From assembly GCA_943350875.1 (NCBI GenBank), contig CALRAL010000001.1:165017-229016 (forward strand): DNA of 64,000 bases, in the 5' to 3' direction. The stretch's first letter is position 1. The number at the start of each line of letters is the position of its first letter. This DNA is from Candidatus Nomurabacteria bacterium. GTDB taxonomy: Bacteria; Patescibacteriota; Minisyncoccia; Phycocordibacterales; UBA9973. This document shows positions 6,678-63,523 of this stretch, in pieces. The position numbers were made by a program, and so were the translations under genes. The notes below the pieces were generated by a model, which saw nothing but the letters and a program-made list of their open reading frames with translations, was not told the DNA's origin and did no database searches.

Positions 6678-6756
6678 GAATTTCAAAAATTTTAAGAGTC
6701 GTGGGTCCCCTGTCCTTGTGTCCCCGAGGGCGAAGGCTCAGAAATTTTTGAAATTC
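6678..6756. repeat. Family-2 MITE-like element: 13-bp TIRs GAATTTCAAAAAT/ATTTTTGAAATTC around a GC-rich core GTGGGTCCCCTGTCCTTGTGTCCCCGAGGGCGAAGGCTC; intergenic dnaX/dus and overlapping the dus stop
   Basis: About 95% identical copy at 48858-48927; related copies at 41129, 60368, 6978 and 37727. Confidence 0.75.
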
Positions 6757-7865
6757 TTCAGCAATAAAAAATCATTAGTTATTTTTTCCACCTCGCTGGC
6801 ATTTTCGGCTCCCATAAGTTTTTCTCGTAATTCTTTTGCACCATCAAAACCATTCACATATGCTTTGTAATGTTTTTTCATTATGGCAAACTTTTTGTAT
6901 TTCCCTAACATTTCTTCAAAAAGTTTTGTGTGCTCTACCATGACTTTTAGTTTTTGTTTAATATTTTGTTCGCTTCGTTCTCTTAAATTTTCTGTCCCTG
7001 CGCCCTTCTCAGAGTACTGAGTGGGACCCTCGGGCGCAGAAAATTCAAGAGAACTTCGCTTACTAAATAGCCATGGATTCCCGAAAATAGCTCTGCCCAA
7101 CATCACCCCATCACAACCATATTCTTCACACTTCCTCCTAGCGTCGTCAGTGTCTACGACATCACCATTGCCGATGATAAGTGTATTTTTATTTATTTCA
7201 TTTCGCATTTCAACTATTCTTGGCATCAAGTCCCAATGCGCAGGAACTTTGGACATCTCTTTACGAGTTCGCAGGTGTACCGTTAGCACAGAAATATTTT
7301 CTTCTAATAAAGTTTTTATCCACTCAACATCCAACAAATGATTATTTTTGCCTGCCCGTCCGAGGACTTTAGGCGAAGGCGGGTTAAAACCAATACGAGT
7401 TTTGACAGAGATCGGTAGACTTGGTGCACCTTCTTTTGCGGCACGAATTATTTCTCTTGCAAGTTTTGGATTCTTTATACAAGCTGCTCCTGCACCTTGT
7501 TTCTCTATGGATTTATCCGGACAACCCATATTTATATCTATTCCATCAAAACCAAGTTCTGCACAAAGAGCTGAAGCCAGCTTTATATTTCCTGGTCTTG
7601 AACCAAATATTTGAGCCACTATCGGATGCTCATTTTCTCCATATTTTAGGTCAATTAAGAGCTTTTCACGTGCTTTTGGGTGTGCAAGGCCATCAGCTGA
7701 CACAAATTCTGTCCAAAATACATCTGGCTTACCATATTTTGCTATTATTTGCCTAAATGCACAATCTGTCACATCTGCCATTGGAGCAAGTACAAAAATA
7801 GGCCTGTTTAATTTTTGCCAAAAGTTTTGCATATTACTTGAATTTGTAATATACCTTATTTCCAA
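6738..7865 (-). CDS. dus: tRNA-dihydrouridine synthase
   Basis: FVLAPMADVTDCAFRQI, catalytic NMGCP and HLRTR motifs; an in-frame MITE-like insertion sits in the C-terminal extension. Confidence 0.85.
   Translation of the reverse strand: MEIRYITNSSNMQNFWQKLNRPIFVLAPMADVTDCAFRQIIAKYGKPDVFWTEFVSADGLAHPKAREKLLIDLKYGENEHPIVAQIFGSRPGNIKLASALCAELGFDGIDINMGCPDKSIEKQGAGAACIKNPKLAREIIRAAKEGAPSLPISVKTRIGFNPPSPKVLGRAGKNNHLLDVEWIKTLLEENISVLTVHLRTRKEMSKVPAHWDLMPRIVEMRNEINKNTLIIGNGDVVDTDDARRKCEEYGCDGVMLGRAIFGNPWLFSKRSSLEFSAPEGPTQYSEKGAGTENLRERSEQNIKQKLKVMVEHTKLFEEMLGKYKKFAIMKKHYKAYVNGFDGAKELREKLMGAENASEVEKITNDFLLLKNFKNF
6978..7053. repeat. Family-2 variant element (TIR GTTCTCTTAAATTTTCTG/CAGAAAATTCAAGAGAAC, core GGGTCCCACTCAGTACTCTG) inserted in-frame in dus (encodes ...EFSAPEGPTQYSEKGAG...)
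   Basis: Core matches the element at 37727-37810 (27/32 nt); 18-bp TIR with one mismatch. Confidence 0.6.
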
Positions 7866-10151: not shown

Positions 10152-11015
10152 ATGAAAATCTACAAACTACCTAAAAATAAATTCCCTAGTGCTTTAATGG
10201 AAATACCTCAGCCCCCAGAGACACTGTGGGCTATAGGAGAACTTCCAAGTGAGGAATTAGTACATTTATGTGTGGTAGGTTCTAGGAAATTCACTTCCTA
10301 CGGCAAAGAAGCATGCGAAAAGATAATTGCGGGGCTCAAAGGATATCCTATTGTAATAGTTTCTGGCTTTGCTATGGGTATAGACACTATTGCTCACAAA
10401 AAAGCAATGCAGATGGGACTCAAGACTCTTGTTTTTCCAGGTTCTGGACTTTCTGATGAAGCAATGTATCCAAAAACGAATGTCCGCCTTATGCGAGAAG
10501 TCATAGAGAGTGATGGATGTTTGCTTTCAGAATTTGAACCAGATTTTAAAGCAACACAATGGAGCTTCCCTATGAGAAATAGATTAATGGCTGGAATCTC
10601 AAAGGCAGTACTTGTGATAGAAGGAGAAGAAAGATCTGGCACACTCATCACTGCTCGTTTGACTACAGAATACAATAGAGATCTGCTAGTAGTACCCGGA
10701 TCTATATTTTCTCCAAATTCAAAAGGGACAAATAAATTATTAAAACAAGGAGCGACACCTGTAACCTGTGCGGAAGATGTTTTAGAAGCACTTGGATTTG
10801 TACAAAAGAAAGATGAAGAAAAACAAGCACAATTATTTTTGGATTTATCTCCTGAAGAAAAGAAGGTTATGGATATGCTTCGTGAACCAATGCCGAGAGA
10901 TGATTTAATCCGCTCTATGAAAATGAATATCTCAATATCTAATTCCCTCCTTTCCGCAATGGAAATACGAGGGCTCATAAAAGAAGAAATGGGTGAGATT
11001 AGGCTAAATAGTTGA
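10152..11015 (+). CDS. dprA: DNA-processing protein DprA (Smf)
   Basis: VVGSRKFTSYG...IVSGFAMGIDTIAHK Rossmann-fold core of DprA. Confidence 0.85.
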   Translation: MKIYKLPKNKFPSALMEIPQPPETLWAIGELPSEELVHLCVVGSRKFTSYGKEACEKIIAGLKGYPIVIVSGFAMGIDTIAHKKAMQMGLKTLVFPGSGLSDEAMYPKTNVRLMREVIESDGCLLSEFEPDFKATQWSFPMRNRLMAGISKAVLVIEGEERSGTLITARLTTEYNRDLLVVPGSIFSPNSKGTNKLLKQGATPVTCAEDVLEALGFVQKKDEEKQAQLFLDLSPEEKKVMDMLREPMPRDDLIRSMKMNISISNSLLSAMEIRGLIKEEMGEIRLNS

Positions 11016-15152: not shown

Positions 15153-15180
15153 TTCAGCTAGGCAAGGCCTAGCTGAAAGA

Positions 15181-23555: not shown

Positions 23556-24311
23556 TTATAAAATGGGGACAACTAAAGCCACTGATTCCATTAAGCTTTT
23601 TACTGAAGATCCTGGCTGACGCAAAAATTCTCTGATTTTGAAAAAATGTTTAAAATAAGTAATACCCATATGGAGGGTAGTCCTTGATATTTTATTGTGT
23701 AAAACGCATTCTAAACTGTTTAAAAAACTTATAGCTTTAGAACGAGAGGAATCTCTTTGGCTCTCTTTCCCGATCTCTATAAGGACTCCGACTTTGGTCG
23801 GAGCCTCTTCTTCAGCTAATAATTCTTTTATAAAATTAATTCTGTTCTGTAAAGACATCTTTATAAATTTTTCTGCCTCACCCTCCGCTAGGTCAGACCT
23901 AGCGGAAATAAAATGGAACCGAGATACAACAGTTTTCAAAAGTACATTTACATCAGGAATAATTATATAAAAAAGTGTATTTGGTACAGGGTCTTCAAAA
24001 AGTTTCAAAAGTGCTTGCTCTGCATCTAATGTAAAATTATTGGCACAAATTATAAATATCTTTTTATTTTCAGCCTCGCCCGTAAAGCTATGGCTTAGGG
24101 AAAATCCACTCTGATACGCCATGTCACGCACACTGAAAGCATCATCAATTTTAAAATTATCAATCACCAAATGACATACATCCGGATTATTTAAAACTTT
24201 TATTCCCAAACTTTCCACAAACTCAAAAATCTCAGGCACAACTTTCTCATGTTCGCCTTCTATTAGGTATGCGTGATGATTATTGTTATTTTCTAAATAT
24301 TCTTTTAACAT
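23556..24311 (-). CDS. holB: DNA polymerase III delta-prime-like clamp-loader subunit (no Walker A); carries in-frame palindromic insertions
   Basis: HAYLIEG..., PDVCHLVID, ...IFIICANNFTLDAEQALLKLFEDPVPNTLFYII...VVSRF aligns with HolB TLEEPP/SRC region. Confidence 0.5.
   Translation of the reverse strand: MLKEYLENNNNHHAYLIEGEHEKVVPEIFEFVESLGIKVLNNPDVCHLVIDNFKIDDAFSVRDMAYQSGFSLSHSFTGEAENKKIFIICANNFTLDAEQALLKLFEDPVPNTLFYIIIPDVNVLLKTVVSRFHFISARSDLAEGEAEKFIKMSLQNRINFIKELLAEEEAPTKVGVLIEIGKESQRDSSRSKAISFLNSLECVLHNKISRTTLHMGITYFKHFFKIREFLRQPGSSVKSLMESVALVVPIL
23783..23805. repeat. Palindrome GGACTCCGAC-TTTG-GTCGGAGCC inside the holB-like CDS
   Basis: In-frame (EEAPTKVGVL); related to the hairpin at 19348. 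Confidence 0.4.
23885..23905. repeat. REP-like palindrome CCGCTAGGTC-AGA-CCTAGCGG, a variant of the RAYT-flanking REP, inside the holB-like CDS
   Basis: Same stem as 61292, 62189, 62891 and 63503; in-frame (ISARSDLAEGE). Confidence 0.6.
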
Positions 24312-26025: not shown

Positions 26026-26733
26026 TTACGCAACGATGACAGTGAACTCTCCTCGCACTTTGTCTTTATTTTTATCAAAGTATTCTAAAAGCTCTGCAGG
26101 TGAGCCGATTTTAAATTCTTCATAGATTTTAGTAAGTTCGCGAGCGATGCAGACTTTTTTATTGGGGCAAAATTTCTGCAAAGATTCTAAAGTTTTCAAA
26201 ATACGATGTGGAGATTCATAGAAAACCATTGTTCTCTTTGATTGCTCAATTTCTTTAAATAAAGTTTCTCTACCCTTTTTATGTGGCAAAAATCCAAGAA
26301 AAGTAAATTCATGAGTTGGGAGTCCTGAAGCAGAAAGCGCAGTGATGACTGCTGAAGCTCCAGGAATAGGGATAACTTGAATGTCAAAGACCGTCTTTGA
26401 CACAGGAGGTGTCAAGGACTGTCCTTGACATTCTTTTATCTGAGCCACCAGCATCGCTCCAGGATCAGAGATGCCTGGAGTGCCTGCATCTGAGACTAAA
26501 GCTAAATCTTTCCCTTTTTTTATTAATTCAAAAATTTTACCAGTTTTAGAAAGTTTGCTTTGAGCATGATAGCTCATAGTCGGTTTATTTATATTATATT
26601 TTTCTAAAATTTTTTTAGTCTCTCGAGTATCCTCGCATAATATCAAATCGACGTTCTTTAATGTCTCAATAGCTCGAAAACTAATGTCTCCCATATTTCC
26701 TATCGGCGTCGCCACTACGTAAAATTTGGACAT
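26026..26733 (-). CDS. rsmI: 16S rRNA (cytidine1402-2'-O)-methyltransferase RsmI
   Basis: FYVVATPIGNMGDISFRAIETLKNVDLILCEDTR tetrapyrrole-methylase-like N-term. Confidence 0.85.
   Translation of the reverse strand: MSKFYVVATPIGNMGDISFRAIETLKNVDLILCEDTRETKKILEKYNINKPTMSYHAQSKLSKTGKIFELIKKGKDLALVSDAGTPGISDPGAMLVAQIKECQGQSLTPPVSKTVFDIQVIPIPGASAVITALSASGLPTHEFTFLGFLPHKKGRETLFKEIEQSKRTMVFYESPHRILKTLESLQKFCPNKKVCIARELTKIYEEFKIGSPAELLEYFDKNKDKVRGEFTVIVA
26410..26430. repeat. Palindrome TGTCAAGGACTGTCCTTGACA inside rsmI (in-frame KECQGQSLT)
   Basis: Same CAAGGACWGTCCTTG core as 29226 and 29251. Confidence 0.55.
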
Positions 26734-26741
26734 AAAATAAA

Positions 26742-30170: not shown

Positions 30171-30186
30171 ACATTTTTCTCTTTAT

Positions 30187-30224
30187 TCCCCGCCTGCAAC
30201 GCTATGCGTAGCATTGCGGGCAGG
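30187..30224. repeat. Family-1 palindrome copy 2 (intergenic atpA/atpG)
   Basis: CCCCGCCTGCAACGCTATGCGTAGCATTGCGGGCAGG. Confidence 0.75.
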
Positions 30225-30262
30225 TTCTTTTAATTTCTTTCGTTGATGCCATAAATAATTTT

Positions 30263-33043: not shown

Positions 33044-33931
33044 TTATACCACTCCCTGTGTTAATTTTTGGTGTTCGTGACTCTCCCCGCCTGCATCGTT
33101 ATGCGAAGCATTGCGGGCAGGCTCGTGATCGTGATCACTTGATGAAATCGTAAAGTAAACCACGAGCAGCATAGAGAATATCAAAGCTTGAATAAATCCA
33201 ACCAATATCTCAAGAAACAAGAACGGGATAGGCACAACATAAGCCACAAGCGCTGATATTGAGACCAAAAGCACTTCCCCAGCAAAAATGTTTCCAAAAA
33301 GACGGAAAGAAAGCGATGCTATTTTTGCCACTTCTCCAGCTATTTCTATCAAACCAACAAAGAACGTAATAGGAGCTACGATTATAACTGTTGGCTCCTT
33401 TTTTATCTTGGTAAAGATACTACCAAGCACACTCAGATTAACATATTTATTAAAAGTTTTCCATATACCTACGGATACTACACCAAACAAATTCGCACCG
33501 ATAACAGCTGACACTGCCAGAGCTAAAGTCGTGTTCACATCTGCCGTCCCTCCACGCAAAAACGGGATGAAGGATTTTATTCCTTCGTGGTTTTCAATGA
33601 GTCCAAAGCCTCCAAGTGGTATAAGTCCAAGCCAATTATTTACTAAAATAAAAAAGAAAACAGAGATAGCCATGGGGAAAATCCTGATAGAAAGAGCTCT
33701 ATCATTCGTTACTTGATCACACATAGATAAAGCTCCTTCTGCAAAAACCTCAAAAACGTTCTGAATTCCCTTTGGAATTTCTTTTAATTTACGACGGAGA
33801 AAAATTGAAATGATAACGATAACTGCCACAGCTACCCAGCTTGTTATAAGAGCATTGGTGATATGAAAACTACCAAAATCAGTTATTTTTTCTGCGAATA
33901 TTGTTGTTTCGTGTAATATTTTTTCTTTCAT
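33044..33931 (-). CDS. atpB: Fo ATP synthase subunit a; C-terminus carries an in-frame Family-1 insertion (PARNASHNDAGG)
   Basis: Conserved Arg helix SFRLFGNIFAGEVLL. Confidence 0.85.
   Translation of the reverse strand: MKEKILHETTIFAEKITDFGSFHITNALITSWVAVAVIVIISIFLRRKLKEIPKGIQNVFEVFAEGALSMCDQVTNDRALSIRIFPMAISVFFFILVNNWLGLIPLGGFGLIENHEGIKSFIPFLRGGTADVNTTLALAVSAVIGANLFGVVSVGIWKTFNKYVNLSVLGSIFTKIKKEPTVIIVAPITFFVGLIEIAGEVAKIASLSFRLFGNIFAGEVLLVSISALVAYVVPIPFLFLEILVGFIQALIFSMLLVVYFTISSSDHDHEPARNASHNDAGGESHEHQKLTQGVV
33085..33121. repeat. Family-1 palindrome copy 3 (inside the atpB 3' end)
   Basis: CCCCGCCTGCATCGTTATGCGAAGCATTGCGGGCAGG. Confidence 0.75.
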
Positions 33932-34221
33932 AAATTCTTATTTTTTTCCCCGCCTGCATCGCTATGCGAAGCATTGCGGGCAGGTATCGAATCTTGTCTC
34001 TCTAATTTTATTTTATATTTTTTTACAGTTTTGACAATACCATAAGCTGAAAGTAAAAAAGATAAAATTATTAGTATAAAAAATATCCAAGGCTTGGTAT
34101 TGTATTTATTATCTAAATATTTTCCAATAATCAAAGCCAAAATTACGGGCACAATAATCCATGTGGATATGTCGCTAAATATTTGAACTCCTGTTTTCCA
34201 CCATATATCATTTTTACCCAT
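33928..34221 (-). CDS. Small two-TM protein at the head of the atp operon (AtpZ/AtpI-like), C-terminus extended by a Family-1 insertion
   Basis: Start trimmed to MGKNDIWW because the ORF-track N-extension overlaps a tRNA; two hydrophobic helices; position. Confidence 0.4.
   Translation of the reverse strand: MGKNDIWWKTGVQIFSDISTWIIVPVILALIIGKYLDNKYNTKPWIFFILIILSFLLSAYGIVKTVKKYKIKLERQDSIPARNASHSDAGGEKNKNL
33948..33984. repeat. Family-1 palindrome copy 4 (3' end of the atpZ-like gene, at the atpB start)
   Basis: CCCCGCCTGCATCGCTATGCGAAGCATTGCGGGCAGG. Confidence 0.75.
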
Positions 34222-40156: not shown

Positions 40157-42037
40157 TTATCCCTTGTTATTTAAGTGAGGATATTCCGCGGTTAGGTTGT
40201 TAACTATGTATTCTTTCGTACCAGCTTGGGAATCCGAGAGAGCTATCTTTTTACCAGGGTTAAAAATATTTTGCGGGTCGAAAATATTTTTAACCTGTTT
40301 GAACAAATCGCAAATGGATTTACCATACATTTTTTCTAAGTAAGGTGTACGGATCAGGCCGTCATTGTGTTCTGCTGTTATTGAACCGCCGAGCCGTATG
40401 ACCAAGTCATACACTTTTTCTGACACGTTCATAATTTCATCTTCTAATTCGACATCTTTTGGATCAAGCAATGTATAAATATGCATATTACCATCACCAG
40501 CATGTCCGCCTACAGCAAAAGTCATTTTCTTCTTATACTCTCCGAGTATTTTATAAAGTGCTGGAAAAAATTCTGGTAACTTTTCCGGACGTACTATTAC
40601 ATCATCTATAAATGGTTCAGACTTTGATTTTTTTAGGTGATAGCGAATAAGATTGAAAGCTTCATGCCGAATAGTCCAGTATTTTTTCATTTCAAAATCA
40701 TTTTTTGCCAAGTGTAAACCAATTTTTTTTACATTGCTTAATTCTCTTAATGCATCTTCTGCGCTTTCATTAGCTTCTGCTTCAGTATCCCCAGTAAATT
40801 CAACTAACAGAATCAACTTAGGAAAACCATACCGTAACGTCATTATAGCTTCCGGTCCAAAACTAAAAATGAGTTTGAAGAAATTTTTTAAACCTAAAAG
40901 GTTAGCAAAACTCACTATGTATTTTAATACGAGCAAAAAAGTCTTGTCATCGTAAGATTCGAGTGTTTGAGGATTATATTTTAAAATCTTATTCACCAAG
41001 TCAGGAACTATTGTCATATCTCTTAAAAAAACTACCACTAATTTTGTGTATGGTTTTGGTTTCACTAGACGAAAAGTAATTTCTGTGGCTATACCTAAAG
41101 TCCCTTGCGAACCTACTAGCAACTTATTGAGATCAAAATTCAAAGAATTTGAGGAGCCGTGGGTCCCCTGTCCTGTGTCTCCGAGGGCGAAGGCGGGCAA
41201 ATTCTTTGAATTTTGATCGATGACATTCCAAATGTAATAGCCAGCAGAATTCTTGTGAACTTTTGGTTTTGCATTTTTTATCTTTGTTTCATTATTTTTT
41301 ATTAATTCGTAAATGTTTTTATAAATATTTCCTTCAAAATCATTCTGCGCTATTTTCTGTTTTAATTCTCCTTCATTTAATGGTTTTACCATATATTCAT
41401 TCCCATCTTCAAAAACAACTCTGGTTTCCATTATATAATCCTCAGTTTTTCCATATTTCAAAGTCCTTTCACCAGCAGAATTGTTACCAAACATTCCACC
41501 CATAGCATTCAGGCTCTTTGAGGCAGTATAACAAGGTAAAATTAAACCTTTTTCTAAAGTTATTTTTTCAAAATCCCTATAAAACATCCCCGGTTGGACG
41601 GTAATGGAATTTATTCCCCTCTTGAGGGGTGGCTCAGTAATCTGAGACGGGGTGGAAAATGTGTCCACCTCCCCCTGCGGGTACTCCTCAAGAGGAGAAT
41701 TTAAATTCTTTACAGGAAAACTGATTAGCTTATTCATATACCTCGTAAAATCTAAAATTATAGATTCACCTATAGACCCACCAGACATATCCGTCCCTGC
41801 ACAACGAGCAGTGATTGAGAGGTTAGAATACAAACCCCCTGAATCCCCCTTGTCAGGGGGACTATTTTTTTTCTCATTTACCCATTTTACAAGATTTTTC
41901 ACATCTTCAGAATCTTTTGGAAAAGCAACCACTTTAGGCCGTATCTCAAAAATACTGGCATCGTGAGAATACTTTGTCAGTGTTTCCTCACTATCCTCCA
42001 CATCCCCTTTGAAAAATTTTTGTATTTCTGATTTCAT
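40157..42037 (-). CDS. FAD-linked oxidase/dehydrogenase (GlcD/D-lactate dehydrogenase-like) carrying several GC-rich insertions
   Basis: PCMH-type FAD-binding region ...ARCAGTDMSGGSIG...; C-terminal FAD-oxidase domain; in-frame MITE at 41129-41218. Confidence 0.6.
   Translation of the reverse strand: MKSEIQKFFKGDVEDSEETLTKYSHDASIFEIRPKVVAFPKDSEDVKNLVKWVNEKKNSPPDKGDSGGLYSNLSITARCAGTDMSGGSIGESIILDFTRYMNKLISFPVKNLNSPLEEYPQGEVDTFSTPSQITEPPLKRGINSITVQPGMFYRDFEKITLEKGLILPCYTASKSLNAMGGMFGNNSAGERTLKYGKTEDYIMETRVVFEDGNEYMVKPLNEGELKQKIAQNDFEGNIYKNIYELIKNNETKIKNAKPKVHKNSAGYYIWNVIDQNSKNLPAFALGDTGQGTHGSSNSLNFDLNKLLVGSQGTLGIATEITFRLVKPKPYTKLVVVFLRDMTIVPDLVNKILKYNPQTLESYDDKTFLLVLKYIVSFANLLGLKNFFKLIFSFGPEAIMTLRYGFPKLILLVEFTGDTEAEANESAEDALRELSNVKKIGLHLAKNDFEMKKYWTIRHEAFNLIRYHLKKSKSEPFIDDVIVRPEKLPEFFPALYKILGEYKKKMTFAVGGHAGDGNMHIYTLLDPKDVELEDEIMNVSEKVYDLVIRLGGSITAEHNDGLIRTPYLEKMYGKSICDLFKQVKNIFDPQNIFNPGKKIALSDSQAGTKEYIVNNLTAEYPHLNNKG
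41129..41218. repeat. Family-2 MITE with perfect 21-bp TIRs GATCAAAATTCAAAGAATTTG/CAAATTCTTTGAATTTTGATC inserted in-frame in the FAD-oxidase gene (LPAFALGDTGQGTHGS)
   Basis: Core GTGGGTCCCCTGTCCTGTGTCTCCGAGGGCGAAGGC matches 6678 and 48858. Confidence 0.7.
41615..41700. repeat. Cluster of GC-rich hairpins (CCCCTCTTGAGGGG, CTCCTCAAGAGGAG, ...) inside the FAD-oxidase CDS
   Basis: Seen directly; a second one, CCCCCTGA..TCAGGGGG, lies at 41835-41863. Confidence 0.4.
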
Positions 42038-48857: not shown

Positions 48858-48927
48858 AATAAAAATTTTAAGAGTCGTGGGTCCCCTGTCCTTATGTCCC
48901 CGAGGGTGAAGGCTCAGAAATTTTTGA
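48858..48927. repeat. Family-2 MITE-like element, near-identical to 6678-6756 (intergenic)
   Basis: AAAATTTTAAGAGTCGTGGGTCCCCTGTCCTTATGTCCCCGAGGGTGAAGGCTCAGAAATTTTTGA. Confidence 0.75.
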
Positions 48928-48971
48928 TTTTTTATAAGTACATTATATCAAAAGTATGTTAAAATAGCCAA

Positions 48972-59279: not shown

Positions 59280-59640
59280 TTTTTATATTACCAAAAGGAT
59301 CATTCCCCATTTTGAGGCCAACAGACTTTTTTGTAGCAAATGTCGTCTTTATCTCTTTAAAACCAAGTGCATATGAAGTAGGAAGATCTACCTTACTAGA
59401 TAATGACAAATAATTGAGCTCTAAATCCCCGACTTCGTTTGAAAGAGCTCTGGCTTGTGTCTCAAAAGTCCTTCTTTCTACTATGTTAAAGACCATATTT
59501 GCAAGGATGACTACATATACAAGACCCAAAACACCCATAGATAGAAGCATAAAACGAAACATCTTCTCCCTGAGATGAGTATCATTCATCACATCTATAT
59601 TCCCAGCATAATTCTTTATTTTTAAACTTATTTGTTTCAT
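59260..59640 (-). CDS. ftsL: FtsL-like small bitopic division protein
   Basis: 126 aa, single TM (FMLLSMGVLGLVYVVILANMVF) then a coiled coil; position between rsmH and ftsI. Confidence 0.45.
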   Translation of the reverse strand: MKQISLKIKNYAGNIDVMNDTHLREKMFRFMLLSMGVLGLVYVVILANMVFNIVERRTFETQARALSNEVGDLELNYLSLSSKVDLPTSYALGFKEIKTTFATKKSVGLKMGNDPFGNIKIAKNEI

Positions 59641-59738
59641 TTTTTTTATTATTTTTTATATTTTTTATATTTTTTATATTTTTTATATTTTTTATATTTT
59701 TTATATTTTTTATATTTTTTATATTTTTTATATTTTTT
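59641..59738. repeat. Tandem array of about 10 copies of the 9-mer TTTTTTATA between rsmH and ftsL
   Basis: Direct reading: ttttttata repeated head-to-tail from about 59652 to 59732 with degenerate flanking copies. Confidence 0.85.
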
Positions 59739-60654
59739 CCAAAACTCTTAATTTTGCACTTCGAGATCTTGGATTTTCTTTTATTTCTTTTTCGCTTGCT
59801 GTGATTATTCTTTTATTAATTAATTTTGCTTTGCCTTCTTTTTCTTTATTTTTATAAAATTTCTTTACTATCCTATCTTCTAAACTATGAAATGAAATAA
59901 CTGACATCCTGCCCCCACTTTTTAAAATTTCAAATCCACCTTTTAAACCTTCTTCCAATACTCTCAATTCATCATTTACTGCTATGCGTATCGCTTGGAA
60001 AGTCCTCGTCGCAAAGTGTAGTCTGCCTCTCCTGTACACTGCTGGGACCGAATCACTGATAATTTTTACTAAATCAAATGTAGTCTTTATCTCTGTCTTT
60101 GATCTAGCCTCCACTATCCCCTTTGCTATCCTTCTAGCAAACTTTTCCTCTCCATAGCCGTAAATGATATCTGCTAAGCTTTCTTCGCTCCAACTGTTTA
60201 CTACGTCATATGCTGTCACTTCATCTGAAAGCGGATTTTCTTTCTCTGAATCTTTACCTGAATTTTGCATTTGCATGAGCAATGGCTCATCTTTCATGAA
60301 AGAAAATCCGCGCCCAGAATTCTCTAATTGATCACTACTCAAACCTAAATCGAAAATGATTCCACTTATGTCTCCGAGGGCGAAGGCGCCGAAATCTTTT
60401 AAATTTTTCAGGTGCCTAAAGTTGATATTAATAAAAGTGATATTACAATCAAGACCTTTAAATTTACTTTTCGCTTTCTCAAATGCGCTAGCATCTTGAT
60501 CAATGGCAATTATCTTTACTTTTGGAAATCTTTTACAAATCTCCAAACTGTGCCCTCCTCCACCAAATGTGGCATCCACTACCACACTGTTTGATTTCAA
60601 GTTCAACCCCTCTATTGTTTCATTTAAAAGAACTGTCTTGTGAATACTTTCCAT
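59728..60654 (-). CDS. rsmH: 16S rRNA (cytosine1402-N4)-methyltransferase RsmH/MraW (carries a partial Family-2 element in-frame)
   Basis: SAM site VVDATFGGGGHS; dcw position after mraZ. Confidence 0.85.
   Translation of the reverse strand: MESIHKTVLLNETIEGLNLKSNSVVVDATFGGGGHSLEICKRFPKVKIIAIDQDASAFEKAKSKFKGLDCNITFININFRHLKNLKDFGAFALGDISGIIFDLGLSSDQLENSGRGFSFMKDEPLLMQMQNSGKDSEKENPLSDEVTAYDVVNSWSEESLADIIYGYGEEKFARRIAKGIVEARSKTEIKTTFDLVKIISDSVPAVYRRGRLHFATRTFQAIRIAVNDELRVLEEGLKGGFEILKSGGRMSVISFHSLEDRIVKKFYKNKEKEGKAKLINKRIITASEKEIKENPRSRSAKLRVLEKI
60368..60412. repeat. Half-copy of the Family-2 element (TGTCTCCGAGGGCGAAGGCGCCGAAATCTTTTAAATTTTTCAGG) inside rsmH (FGAFALGDISG)
   Basis: Matches the 3' half of 6678 and 41129. 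Confidence 0.55.
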
Positions 60655-61165: not shown

Positions 61166-61263
61166 AAATTTTCTTTATTTCCAAATTTCCCACTTCTTCC
61201 CACCTGATATACATTATAAACCACATAAGAAAATACCACCAAGCCCTAACTGTGGATAACTAA

Positions 61264-61287: not shown

Positions 61288-61291
61288 AGTT

Positions 61292-61312
61292 CCGCTAGGT
61301 CTTTCCTAGCGG
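61292..61312. repeat. REP CCGCTAGGTCTTTCCTAGCGG
   Basis: Perfect 8-bp stem palindrome; identical copies at 62189 and 63503, inverted copy at 62891. Confidence 0.8.
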
Positions 61313-61474
61313 AAAATATAATTTTTATTTAACTTTTTACTCTGGCAAAGCTGGAGGAACTAATCCTTGATCATCCCCATTCTTTGCTGAGTTTCCTTTT
61401 TGTATTAAGAAGTAACCTACAATTAACAAAGTGACTACTATAACGATATAAATAATTTTTTTCATAAAAATAAA

Positions 61475-62122
61475 TTAATTAAATACTGGTAATGGTGGTG
61501 GTAATGATCCTCCTTTTTCTCCAAACTTACATTCTTTTTCTACATTGATTGCAAATCCAAGACCAATTTGTTTTAGACCTTTGACTGATTCAAAAGTATA
61601 TCCTTTTAAATTAACCCATCTCTCACTGCCTTCTGAATTATATGCAAAAGCTTTTTTTACAATACAATCACCAGTCACATCATCAAAATTCTTGCCAACC
61701 ATTTCTGGAGTGATAAATTTTAAATTCCAACCTGCAAAAAGACGATGTGTTTGCCCGTAATCAACTTTAAATGTTATATCCTGTTCGGATGGATAATAAT
61801 ACCAATAAGTACCTACTATGCGTCCTTCGGTTTTATCTATATCAATCCCTCTGTCTTTAAAATCTTTTTGAATTTGTGACTTTTCTGTCTCAGTAGGACG
61901 TGGTTTTATAGGAAAATATCTATTTAAAATTGGAAGATACGCAAAAACAGAAGTAGCAGGAGGCATTAAAGTAGTGTTAAAATCACTACCTTCACCCAAA
62001 AGATACCAACCTTTAAAAACATGGATAGTCTGACTATATGCAGGTCTATCTGCAAAAACTTTAGAACCAAACATTATTGTTAAAATAAACACAATTAAAC
62101 AAATTGCTATTTTTTTGTTCAT
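61475..62122 (-). CDS. Hypothetical secreted protein (215 aa)
   Basis: Signal peptide MNKKIAICLIVFILTIMFGSKVFA; a 42-aa signal-peptide ORF lies downstream at about 61340-61468. Confidence 0.5.
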   Translation of the reverse strand: MNKKIAICLIVFILTIMFGSKVFADRPAYSQTIHVFKGWYLLGEGSDFNTTLMPPATSVFAYLPILNRYFPIKPRPTETEKSQIQKDFKDRGIDIDKTEGRIVGTYWYYYPSEQDITFKVDYGQTHRLFAGWNLKFITPEMVGKNFDDVTGDCIVKKAFAYNSEGSERWVNLKGYTFESVKGLKQIGLGFAINVEKECKFGEKGGSLPPPLPVFN

Positions 62123-62188: not shown

Positions 62189-62210
62189 CCCGCTAGGTCT
62201 TTCCTAGCGG
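62189..62210. repeat. REP CCCGCTAGGTCTTTCCTAGCGG, immediately 3' of the RAYT gene
   Basis: Identical to 61292 and 63503. Confidence 0.8.
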
Positions 62211-62214
62211 AGAA

Positions 62215-62871
62215 CTAGCGGAGGAAATTAATCCACTCTAAAATTTCCTTTTGGAAAGTTTTTTTAGCAGGAAAATAATCAGGAAATGGTTTTAGATCCA
62301 GGATATTTTTCTCTTTACGTTCTACTCTTAAATAATCCAAATAACTTGAATATTGATATTCTTCTAAAAATTTTAAAACCCTAGATTTATTCTGTATCCC
62401 CATTTCTTTCCATTTTGGCTCAACTAATTTTACAGGATTTAAATGTATATAAGAAAAAAGATATTTGAGATATCGATCTGTATCAATATGTTCAGCTTTA
62501 AATTTACCTTCAAATAAACTACCTGAACGTTTATATTTTTTATTAAAATACATTACATATGCAGTAACTAATTTTTGCATAAATTTACTAATATTCCCCT
62601 CATCAGTATCTGTAATTAAAATATGAAAATGATTTGGCATTAAACAATATGCCCCAATGTTGACAATTTGATCACCACGAGAAGACTCAAATAAACTTTG
62701 ATTTTTATTTAAATTATCTATTTTAAAATCTCTAGAAGAATTACAGGCAAAAAGTAACCCTATAAACCTACCATAATCAGATTTATCTTTAAAAATGAGT
62801 TGTTTGCTATTACCGCGATTATATATGTGATAATACTCACCTTTTACAAAATTAACTTTCCTTAAGGACAT
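62215..62871 (-). CDS. rayT: REP-associated tyrosine transposase (RAYT; IS200/IS605-like Y1 HUH transposase)
   Basis: HUH motif YCLMPNHFHILI and catalytic Tyr motif YIHLNPVK; aligns with E. coli RAYT (VVLPEHMHCIW ... YIYINPVKHG); flanked by REPs. Confidence 0.8.
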   Translation of the reverse strand: MSLRKVNFVKGEYYHIYNRGNSKQLIFKDKSDYGRFIGLLFACNSSRDFKIDNLNKNQSLFESSRGDQIVNIGAYCLMPNHFHILITDTDEGNISKFMQKLVTAYVMYFNKKYKRSGSLFEGKFKAEHIDTDRYLKYLFSYIHLNPVKLVEPKWKEMGIQNKSRVLKFLEEYQYSSYLDYLRVERKEKNILDLKPFPDYFPAKKTFQKEILEWINFLR

Positions 62872-62890
62872 AATTTTAATTATATCACCT

Positions 62891-62911
62891 CCGCTAGGAA
62901 AGACCTAGCGG
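62891..62911. repeat. REP (inverted copy) CCGCTAGGAAAGACCTAGCGG, immediately 5' of the RAYT gene
   Basis: Reverse-complement loop (AAAGA vs TCTTT) relative to the other copies. Confidence 0.8.
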
Positions 62912-62996
62912 TAGAAATACCACCAAGCCCTAGCTGTGGATAACTTTGCTCGGTTAATTACTATGGTTTTAAATAAGATTTTGGTATATTTACACT

Positions 62997-63476
62997 ATGC
63001 CTAGCGAGAGAATAGACACATCAAAAATGGGATTAGCTTCTGACCCTTTGGCTCAAATTAAAAATTGGGAATTAATGGCTAACGATATAGAAAAGTATCA
63101 AAAGATGAAGGAACTGATTATCGAATCTTTTAAATCGATCCTTGATTTGATGCCGCCTCAAGTCAAGATTACTGTCCAAGACAAAATCAACAACTTGAAT
63201 AATACAGATGCCATTTATGAGTATGAAGAATTAATAGGTTTTATTAAATTAGCAAAAATCCACTCTGAAAGTCTACTAAGTAGTCTAGATGATAAAGATA
63301 TACCTGACTATGCTGCCCCTTATAAAGCCGTAAGTTACTTAAATACAGTAATTAGTTTAACTATAGAAAATGACTCAGAAAATAACCTTAATCAAATGGG
63401 TGTTGCCTTTGTTGGGCGATTACATGCTTCAAGAGATCAAATAGAGAAGATCGATTGGGCTGAAGGTTGGAAATAA
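62997..63476 (+). CDS. Hypothetical protein (159 aa) bracketed by REPs
   Basis: Clean ORF; no recognisable motif. Confidence 0.4.
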   Translation: MPSERIDTSKMGLASDPLAQIKNWELMANDIEKYQKMKELIIESFKSILDLMPPQVKITVQDKINNLNNTDAIYEYEELIGFIKLAKIHSESLLSSLDDKDIPDYAAPYKAVSYLNTVISLTIENDSENNLNQMGVAFVGRLHASRDQIEKIDWAEGWK

Positions 63477-63502: not shown

Positions 63503-63523
63503 CCGCTAGGTCTTTCCTAGCGG
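63503..63523. repeat. REP CCGCTAGGTCTTTCCTAGCGG overlapping the lysS stop codon
   Basis: Identical to 61292. Confidence 0.8.

Follow-up and report, generated by a model that had tools for sequence, protein, structure and literature searches.

The host role of repetitive extragenic palindromic (REP) sequences and of the REP-associated tyrosine transposases (RAYTs) is still open, and both have been studied almost only in Proteobacteria. A locus in the genome of a Candidatus Nomurabacteria bacterium (Patescibacteriota) raises the question whether a gene of this type and the small palindromes on either side of it constitute such a system, an insertion sequence (IS) or a chance neighbourhood. The stretch of DNA analyzed here, called the window, comprises 64,000 nt of contig CALRAL010000001.1 (assembly GCA_943350875.1, positions 165,017 to 229,016), and close to its right end a gene for a Y1 tyrosine endonuclease of the HUH type lies between two copies of one 21-nt palindrome. 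An earlier note, made from the letters alone, had described the locus as the unit of a domesticated RAYT with its cognate palindromes. We consider it likely that the locus is a REPtron-like unit of a Patescibacteria (Paceibacteria/Nomurabacteria-like) genome, that is, a RAYT-type Y1 HUH gene placed between its own inverted hairpins, with dispersed copies of the hairpin elsewhere. For comparison we used 80 loci from species-representative genomes, extra loci with close homologues and 120 metagenome stretches containing the hairpin; labels beginning with L or P refer to these loci.

We show that the gene encodes a RAYT-class Y1 HUH endonuclease and is intact, strongly conserved and, within the window, single-copy. 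The open reading frame (ORF) singled out by the earlier note for its LMPNHFHILI and YIHLNPVK motifs was confirmed, and its product of 218 amino acids (aa) scored 37.3 bits in the proposed check against Pfam Y1_Tnp (gathering cut-off 23), a model that also matched 25 out of 25 aligned homologues. In this alignment H81, H83, Y141, N145, P146, S175 and S176 are invariant, as are the NHFH, LFEGKF, YIHLNP and Y-S-S (175-176) motifs, and conservation spans the whole protein, residues 150-218 included. The HUH motif (PNHFH) together with the Y---NP tyrosine motif (YIHLNP) makes up the class 2/TnpA-REP signature, as tabulated for Y---NP in PMC6006769, Table 1. When aligned by hhalign with E. coli RayT, the protein has its HUH and Tyr motifs in register with those of RayT (E 0.0028). 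A PDB sequence search with the protein gave no match and one with the family profile reached at best ISDra2 TnpA with E 0.36; as such searches are uninformative, the relation to solved structures is taken from the fold, which is that of the solved RAYT including the parts outside the IS200 core. The family is very large (7,983 of 8,000 scored candidates at E <= 0.001), the best 120 of these 8,000 are each at least 62% identical, and their source labels read Patescibacteria, Paceibacterota or Nomurabacteria; one of them is annotated in IMG as 'REP element-mobilizing transposase RayT'. The best match in a scan of GTDB genomes is 65% identical. By tblastn the window contains one such gene only, and the count remains one in 74 kb when a further 10 kb is added.

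The palindromes bracket the gene in inverted orientation, as the earlier note had stated. CCGCTAGGTCTTTCCTAGCGG lies 4 nt past the stop codon, and CCGCTAGGAAAGACCTAGCGG, with the stem of CCGCTAGGTCTTTCCTAGCGG and an inverted loop, 19 nt before the ATG (Table 1). The loop reads TCTTT at 62190 and AAAGA at 62891. The recurrences listed in that note also proved correct, the copies at 61292 and 63503 being identical to the 21-mer and the one at 23885 differing in its loop (TCAGA); the copy at 15155, with two mismatches, shares the CTAGG top but not the foot, and is similar to the REP that accompanies a related RAYT (GAGCTAGG, L010). The six matches to the 21-mer in the window (five perfect ones and the two-mismatch variant) compare with 0.00 expected from 100 dinucleotide-preserving shuffles, and perfect GC-rich hairpins of at least 7 bp number 16 versus 1.65 in the shuffles. 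Each copy folds as single-stranded DNA with -9.6 to -11.8 kcal/mol (z -3.9 to -6.9).

Table 1 Transposase gene, hairpin copies and associated elements in the window
Feature	Position	Strand	Remarks
RAYT-class Y1 HUH tyrosine endonuclease gene	62215..62871	-	HUH is H81-F82-H83; catalytic Tyr is Y141 in YIHLNP; S175-S176 motif
Upstream REP-like hairpin	62891..62911	-	On the sense strand of the gene: CCGCTAGG-TCTTT-CCTAGCGG
Downstream REP-like hairpin	62190..62210	+	Inverted relative to the upstream copy by loop orientation
Extended -10 promoter-like element TGATATAAT	62879..62887	-	7 nt before the ATG; read directly from the sequence
Half-REP CCTCCGCTAG	62215..62224	-	Tandem partial copy of one hairpin arm; the gene takes its final Leu and Arg codons and its TAG stop from it
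Solo REP copy	61292..61312	+	10-bp stem 61290-61314; located between the end of the orf42/orf215 operon and the region upstream of mraZ; sole copy with a T-rich tail
Solo REP copy	63503..63523	+	Between convergent orf159 and lysS; covers the last codons and TAG stop of lysS
Intragenic REP copy	23885..23905	-	Coding-strand loop TCTGA; host gene holB (23556-24311, minus); read in frame as SARSDLAE, in the linker that follows the AAA+ domain
Variant hairpin CAGCTAGG-CAAGG-CCTAGCTG	15155..15175	-	11-bp stem 15153-15177; between convergent relA/spoT-like and parB genes

The gene-hairpin link is general across the Patescibacteria homologues. When 46 homologues with complete flanks were compared with 433 control ORFs, a perfect GC-rich hairpin was present within 70 nt upstream in 27 of the homologues and 15 of the controls; such hairpins on both sides were seen in 18 homologues and in a single control ORF, and the same stem on both sides in 14 and again in one. 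The stems vary between genomes, mostly with AGG before the loop (CCGCTAGG, TTGCTAGG, GCGTTAGG, TCCCTAGG, TTCCAAGG, TGTCAAGG and others), and the identity of the hairpin arms climbs with that of the proteins (Spearman rho 0.54 for protein-ascertained loci and 0.73 for all loci, reached in 0 of 2000 Mantel permutations), from a mean of 0.27 for pairs with less than 40% protein identity to 0.91 for pairs above 70%. Shared ancestry adds to this correlation, which is what co-inheritance of gene and repeat predicts.

Both the roughly 200-fold enrichment of both-side hairpins at this gene family and the co-variation of their arms with the protein count against the explanation, to us highly improbable, that the hairpins serve the host in regulation (as bidirectional terminators, mRNA stabilisers or translation stops) and evolve under ordinary selection, the gene merely happening to lie among them. 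The explanation draws on the position of the copies at 63503, 15155 and 61292 between convergent genes or at gene ends, on the terminator-like pattern of 61290-61314, and on the extra complementary flanks, often A-tract/T-tract, of about 20% of the metagenome copies; REPs in general lie mostly downstream of ORFs (Di Nocera et al., PMC3733652). As intrinsic terminators, however, five of the six window copies fail since the T tail is present at 61290-61314 only; 44 of 165 copies lie in frame inside long ORFs, and identity over 21 nt among copies and among genomes with 48-82% identical proteins would not be expected of independent terminators. Rfam has no family that covers the hairpins. Complementarity of the flanks far beyond the core, differing from copy to copy, was itself observed, with 6 or more additional pairs in 16 of 141 copies, where 1.1 would be expected (among others in L092, L101, L145, L162, L182, L184, L191 and L208), and many of these flanks are A-tract/T-tract, like bidirectional terminators.

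The arrangement around the gene is itself recurrent. In the window the upstream hairpin is followed after 6 nt by TGATATAAT (62887-62879) and, 7 nt further on, by the ATG; in relatives the order is hairpin, about 12 nt, TATAAT, 7 nt, ATG. The promoter tool did not list the TGATATAAT element because it requires a -35 hexamer. The layout suggests transcription from a promoter belonging to the gene itself, with no leader or almost none on the mRNA: the TGnTATAAT box, 7 nt from the ATG, would probably drive a leaderless transcript insulated by the hairpins. The polarity of the upstream hairpin, with the T-rich loop on the sense strand, is fixed in 22 of 24 units of the CTAGG/TTAGG type. The downstream hairpin lies at or over the stop codon, and many homologues stop inside the hairpin itself, with TTC/CTC CGC TAG as last codons supplied by its arm in many of them. 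Owing to the CTAG in both arms, two of the three frames on each strand are closed by TAG; a copy therefore terminates a gene or else is tolerated in the remaining open frame alone, which encodes A-R-x-x-L-A. Tandem duplications of 13-15 nt of one arm adjoin full hairpins at 62215-62224 and in L113, L144, L149, L176, L185, L195 and L197; they often end within the loop, their coding copies give peptides such as SARSDLAETDLAE, and they may be slippage products or footprints of loop cleavage.

How the unit is inherited can be judged from relatives sharing its position. In L087-L089 the same GreA-LysRS-[gene]-MraZ-RsmH slot holds a 71%-identical gene; the neighbours are 48-82% identical, and the 21-mer recurs unchanged at three orthologous places, namely upstream of the gene, downstream of it and at the end of lysS, the last being orthologous to copy 63503..63523. 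Besides the hairpins, only the putative mraZ operator region aligns between the intergenic DNA of L087 and that of the window. L058 has the same slot with a similar divergence of the neighbours, but its gene is 48% identical and accompanied by a different hairpin, GCGGAAGT.. (GCGGAAGTCCGACTTCCGC, at least five copies). The slot between lysS and mraZ is occupied in L087-89, L115, L126, L058 and L059, with RAYT divergence similar to that of the neighbours. A second gene copy is present in L051, L057, L067 and L090; each time it is a divergent paralogue and comes with a different hairpin. Such within-locus paralogues are 40-54% identical to the query. Taken with the other contexts of the closest homologues, this mixed picture fits a low-copy gene, mostly inherited with its repeats and occasionally relocated or replaced. 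A separate observation concerns L058, whose RAYT gene contains a copy of that genome's hairpin GCGGAAGTCCGACTTCCGC (10276-10294) and has about 9 additional residues in the alignment, a situation reminiscent of the REP insertions in tnpA-REP genes reported for subclass 2.4.

Across 33 related units the flanking hairpins were inverted in 19, direct in 11 and otherwise arranged in 3; the family spans IS200-like (direct) and REPtron-like (inverted, as in the window) arrangements. The direct units, whose two hairpins point in one direction, as IS200/IS605 ends do, are one reason to consider an autonomous IS200-like insertion sequence, a hairpin-gene-hairpin element moving as a whole, in which the encoded TnpA would take the two hairpins for its left and right subterminal ends. 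A constant, short spacing between hairpins and gene (here about 19-25 nt upstream of the ATG and, at the other end, at or across the stop codon) is likewise shared with the TnpA of IS200/IS605 elements (IS608, ISDra2) and the tnpB-only IS1341-type elements, the closest homologues (77-80%) lie in unrelated gene contexts, and the very same hairpin forms the right end of a tnpB element in related DNA. We nevertheless regard this explanation as unlikely. IS200/IS605 elements have same-strand subterminal hairpins and multiple near-identical copies, whereas the window has a single gene without tnpB between inverted hairpins, an arrangement that cannot serve a strand-specific Y1 enzyme as left and right ends; the gene count of one in 74 kb, the different hairpins of the within-locus paralogues, none of them a near-identical copy, and the position of most hairpin copies away from any such gene point the same way, as does the lysS-mraZ slot common to relatives in which RAYT divergence matches that of the neighbours. 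TnpA of IS200/IS605 (subclass 1.1) has Y---Q, DH[VI]H and a core of about 150 aa, and the protein described here YIHLNP, NHFH and 218 aa (PMC6006769, Table 1). The term 'domesticated' is only partly borne out: in some relatives the gene keeps its slot and diverges as its neighbours do, but the closest homologues have other contexts and 11 of 33 related units have direct, IS200-like flanks.

Hairpin copies also occur away from the gene. In 97 of the 120 metagenome stretches with the hairpin no RAYT homologue was found in the stretch, a soft figure because the stretches are short. The in-frame copies mentioned above belong to at least 25 gene families and encode S-A-R-Q-D-L-A-E, mostly being oriented to give Q-D and not S-C; their hosts include holB and TP_methylase/rsmI-like genes, and others resemble genes for DNA ligase, Mur ligase and RNase H, as judged from the local sequence only. 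REPs within genes, often genes of replication and repair, were reported earlier (PMC3733652). In the window the host, identified as holB by its match to Pfam DNA_pol3_delta2, carries its copy in frame in a tolerant loop, as intragenic palindromes do. The idea that an 'empty site' would prove insertion into holB had to be abandoned: no shorter REP-free site was found among holB homologues, and the motif-free ones have the same length with decayed versions (PAKSDLTE, RTKTDLEK), so that the holB copy is old and not a recent insertion. At the DNA level L214 has a perfect hairpin, L213 a variant with a compensatory pair change and one G·T pair, and L215 a decayed version with the loop kept; the copy is either conserved or repeatedly restored.

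Two other perfect hairpins of the window were found within genes, TGTCAAGGACAGTCCTTGACA at 26410-26430 in an rsmI-like gene (26029-26736, minus), where it codes for CQGQSLT, and TCCCCCTTGTCAGGGGGA at 41844-41861 in a FAD-oxidase gene (40181-42037, minus). Both sit in loops where relatives (L132, L137 and L205 for the former, L106 and L156 for the latter) have CCGCTAGG coding for SARQDLAE, and the stem of TGTCAAGGACAGTCCTTGACA is that of the REPs flanking other RAYT subfamilies (L036, L047). The palindromic elements of Rickettsia, reported by Ogata et al. (2000) in frame in protein-coding genes, are comparable in being short palindromes in frame in genes often concerned with replication or repair (here holB and a DNA ligase). 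The present hairpins are far shorter (21-27 nt, 7-9 residues), have a linked Y1 gene, and differ further in that distinct hairpin families fill the same loop of orthologous proteins depending on the lineage.

By its motifs the protein resembles TnpAY1 subclass 2.1 (terminal inverted repeat-associated tyrosine transposases, TIRYT) and not the subclass of E. coli, an assignment made by motifs only. It shares NH[YF]H, F[QE] and Y[IV]HLNP as well as the SS motif that follows the catalytic helix, and its length of 218 aa is close to the subclass 2.1 median of 238 aa. Subclass 2.1, which equals Bertels group 1, has been reported to lack REPs and to possess a C-terminal helix-turn-helix (HTH; Bac_DnaA_C, HTH_23 or HTH_28) and GGGGWSAS terminal inverted repeats (Quentin et al. 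2018, PMC6006769; Di Nocera et al. 2013, PMC3733652). Here the gene is flanked by hairpin repeats (CCGCTAGG), the GGGGWSAS consensus is absent, and no C-terminal HTH (Bac_DnaA_C, HTH_23, HTH_28) was detected by Pfam in 25 members even with E up to 5.

This likeness bears on the explanation that the gene encodes a TIRYT/subclass-2.1-type Y1 protein with another role, for instance a trans action on tnpB-omegaRNA elements that have the same hairpin at their end, or the repair and homogenisation of hairpins; REP copies would then be by-products or relics. Besides the signature NHFH / F-E / YIHLNP / SS, which equals the table entry of subclass 2.1, it has on its side the persistence of perfect hairpins at old intragenic sites, one with a compensatory change, and a tnpB element with nine different right flanks whose exact right boundary is the hairpin plus TAGTTCAC. 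The HTH and the GGGGWSAS inverted repeats of that subclass were, however, not found here, tnpB was found neither in the window nor in any of about 90 RAYT-containing loci, and the hairpins are arranged around the gene as in REPtrons; we therefore think this explanation very unlikely.

The tnpB element deserves description in its own right. In related metagenome DNA the hairpin CCGCTAGGTCTTGCCTAGCGG followed by TAGTTCAC marks its right boundary, at L091 (2069-3305 and 4172-4325) and also in L116, L151, L155, L164, L169, L171 and L188, nine copies in total. The encoded protein matches Pfam OrfB_IS605 with 108.9 bits and a Cas12f1-like TNB domain with 90.7 bits, and the boundary hairpin follows about 230 nt of conserved non-coding sequence, presumably the omega-RNA. 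No tnpA adjoins the element and no matching left-end hairpin was seen.

Returning to the REPtron-like unit, we find that it shares with the E. coli REPtron (RayT = YafM = TnpA-REP; REP/BIME, where BIME stands for bacterial interspersed mosaic element; structure 4ER8) a single Y1 HUH gene with the Y---NP tyrosine motif, flanked by inverted short GC-rich palindromes that are found elsewhere too. The two enzymes have about 13% sequence identity, and the window protein has an extra C-terminal region of about 70 residues (150-218), conserved in the clade. E. coli REPs have a 5' GT[AG]G guide tetranucleotide and long bulged stems, neither of which occurs in the window hairpins, and number hundreds per genome where the window hairpin has a few per 64 kb. 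With the REPIN-RAYT systems of Pseudomonas (Bertels and Rainey; groups 2 and 3) the unit has in common the single-copy gene with flanking repeats, one repeat family per paralogue, gene-repeat co-evolution and partly vertical inheritance; REPINs are inverted doublets, whereas the present hairpins are mostly singlets. REPs have been described as species-specific (PMC6006769), whereas the hairpin core here is identical across genomes with 50-80% identical housekeeping proteins.

Several observations weigh against assigning the locus to the REPtrons. On the NCBIfam RAYT equivalog model (NF047646, REP_Tyr_transpos) the protein reached 45.8 bits over model positions 38-133 of 146, under the cut-off of 80, while E. 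coli RayT scored 179 bits. Among 141 copies oriented by their loop neither a GT[AG]G nor any other conserved unpaired tetranucleotide was present, and the check for a conserved tetranucleotide 5' of the hairpin, which the earlier note had proposed, was negative: the flanks (C/T-T ... A-G/A) pair with each other and only lengthen the stem, so that the hairpins fall outside the canonical GT[AG]G REPs. Copies are few (5-6 per 64 kb, four of them within 2.3 kb of the gene), no copy was found in a further 10 kb beyond the window, and with so few copies clustered near the gene genome-wide dispersal in the source organism is not demonstrated. Many solo copies of the metagenomes are at orthologous intragenic sites (holB, rsmI, ligase and others) and reflect old inheritance, not recent movement; the L214 holB copy is CCGCTAGG, whereas the RAYT on that contig (L012), at a distance of 15 kb, has GCGTTAGG on its flanks. 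The three closest homologues with long contigs (77-80%; P0002, P0007 and P0019) lie in a different context, among unrelated surface-protein genes. Binding, cleavage and transposition by proteins of the clade, mobilisation of the hairpins included, would follow by analogy with related enzymes. Given the absence of GT[AG]G, the equivalog score, the subclass 2.1 motifs and the low copy number, the unit is genuinely related to the known REP/RAYT systems but unusual among them, and not a canonical REPtron of the E. coli type. The claim of a RAYT with cognate palindromes is supported by family, fold, flanking arrangement, conservation and co-variation, with the equivalog score and the kind of REP among its caveats.

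A mechanism may be modelled on the established biochemistry of E. coli TnpA(REP) and IS608 TnpA (background in PMC6006769). The enzyme would bind the hairpin in single-stranded DNA, for example on the lagging-strand template, and its tyrosine would cut beside or within the hairpin with formation of a 5'-phosphotyrosine link. Rejoining of the ends could then lead to hairpin copies being copied, moved or maintained, while the gene itself would stay put.

The earlier note had also seen in the unit a source of at least one of the miniature repeat families of this genome. This may apply to copies of its own hairpin, which the enzyme would mobilise, but not to the other repeat families of the window, which are unrelated to the RAYT hairpin in sequence. 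A second family of about 44 nt (CCCCGCCTGCATCGCTATGCGAAGCATTGCGGGCAGG) lies at 592-635, 30182-30225, 33079-33122 and 33942-33985, with three of the four copies in frame in long ORFs, encoding P-A-R-N-A-S-H-S-D-A-G-G-E. A third, of 47-67 nt, is found at 6685-6761, 41142-41218, 48861-48937 and 60365-60411, two copies being in frame, in rsmH (peptide FGAFALGDIS) and in the FAD-oxidase gene (PAFALGDTGQGTHGS). The 3' end of rsmH holds in addition a tandem array (59607-59738) of a 9-nt unit (TTTTTTATA-like, about 12 copies).

A 31-nt direct repeat with one mismatch (61231-61261 and 62915-62945) contains the perfect DnaA box TTATCCACA and brackets the block REP-orf42-orf215-REP-RAYT-REP. A replication origin or DnaA-related function of the region was rejected: there is no GC-skew switch near 61-63 kb, DnaA boxes are not clearly enriched in the window (28 versus 19.9±3.9), their excess near the hairpins (8 versus 1.5 expected) is partly non-independent, and the box-bearing repeat derives by duplication from the conserved region upstream of mraZ, occurring only once in L087, L115 and L126. 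As these relatives have only the copy upstream of mraZ, that beside the upstream hairpin of the RAYT gene is a lineage-specific duplication. Also upstream of mraZ, repeated GTGG boxes (GTGGT..GTGGT..GTGGGAAGAAGTGGG; 61180-61250, minus), which resemble a MraZ operator, are 83-88% conserved with L087 and L126 in otherwise non-conserved intergenic DNA. Of the genes adjoining the unit, orf215 (61475-62122, minus) and orf159 (62997-63476, plus) have no Pfam or NCBIfam match and are replaced by other small ORFs in the syntenic L087, so that the surroundings of the unit are variable.

A wider and more speculative reading, which we entertain only tentatively, is that the RAYT-like enzyme of Paceibacteria and the hairpin core (…CTAGG-loop-CCTAG…) form an old partnership going beyond selfish spread, in which a shared, trans-acting Y1 nuclease/ligase would overwrite or homogenise hairpin 'slots' and service tnpB elements. 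The reading arises because the hairpin is letter-perfect at orthologous sites, essential genes such as holB included, across genomes with 50-80% identical proteins, because the same protein loops host different hairpin families by lineage, and because a tnpB-omegaRNA element has this very hairpin as its right end and as the final stem ahead of the guide. In the literature searched, no paper was found that links REP or RAYT to Patescibacteria, or RAYT to TnpB.

The locus stands for a very large and strongly conserved RAYT-like clade (more than 7,900 database proteins) in the ultra-small, gene-dense Patescibacteria, tied to hairpins without a guide tetranucleotide, and extends the REPtrons to a motif class thought to be without REPs. 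The hairpins are notable for being identical across deep divergence, for supplying stop codons and for lying in frame in essential genes. In annotations of the Candidate Phyla Radiation (CPR) they are a source of artefacts, as S-A-R-Q-D-L-A-E inserts and altered C-termini, and a 21-nt hairpin with a 218-aa enzyme offers a compact substrate for biochemistry. The old partnership, if true, would link the REPtrons to the biology of IS200/IS605 and TnpB.

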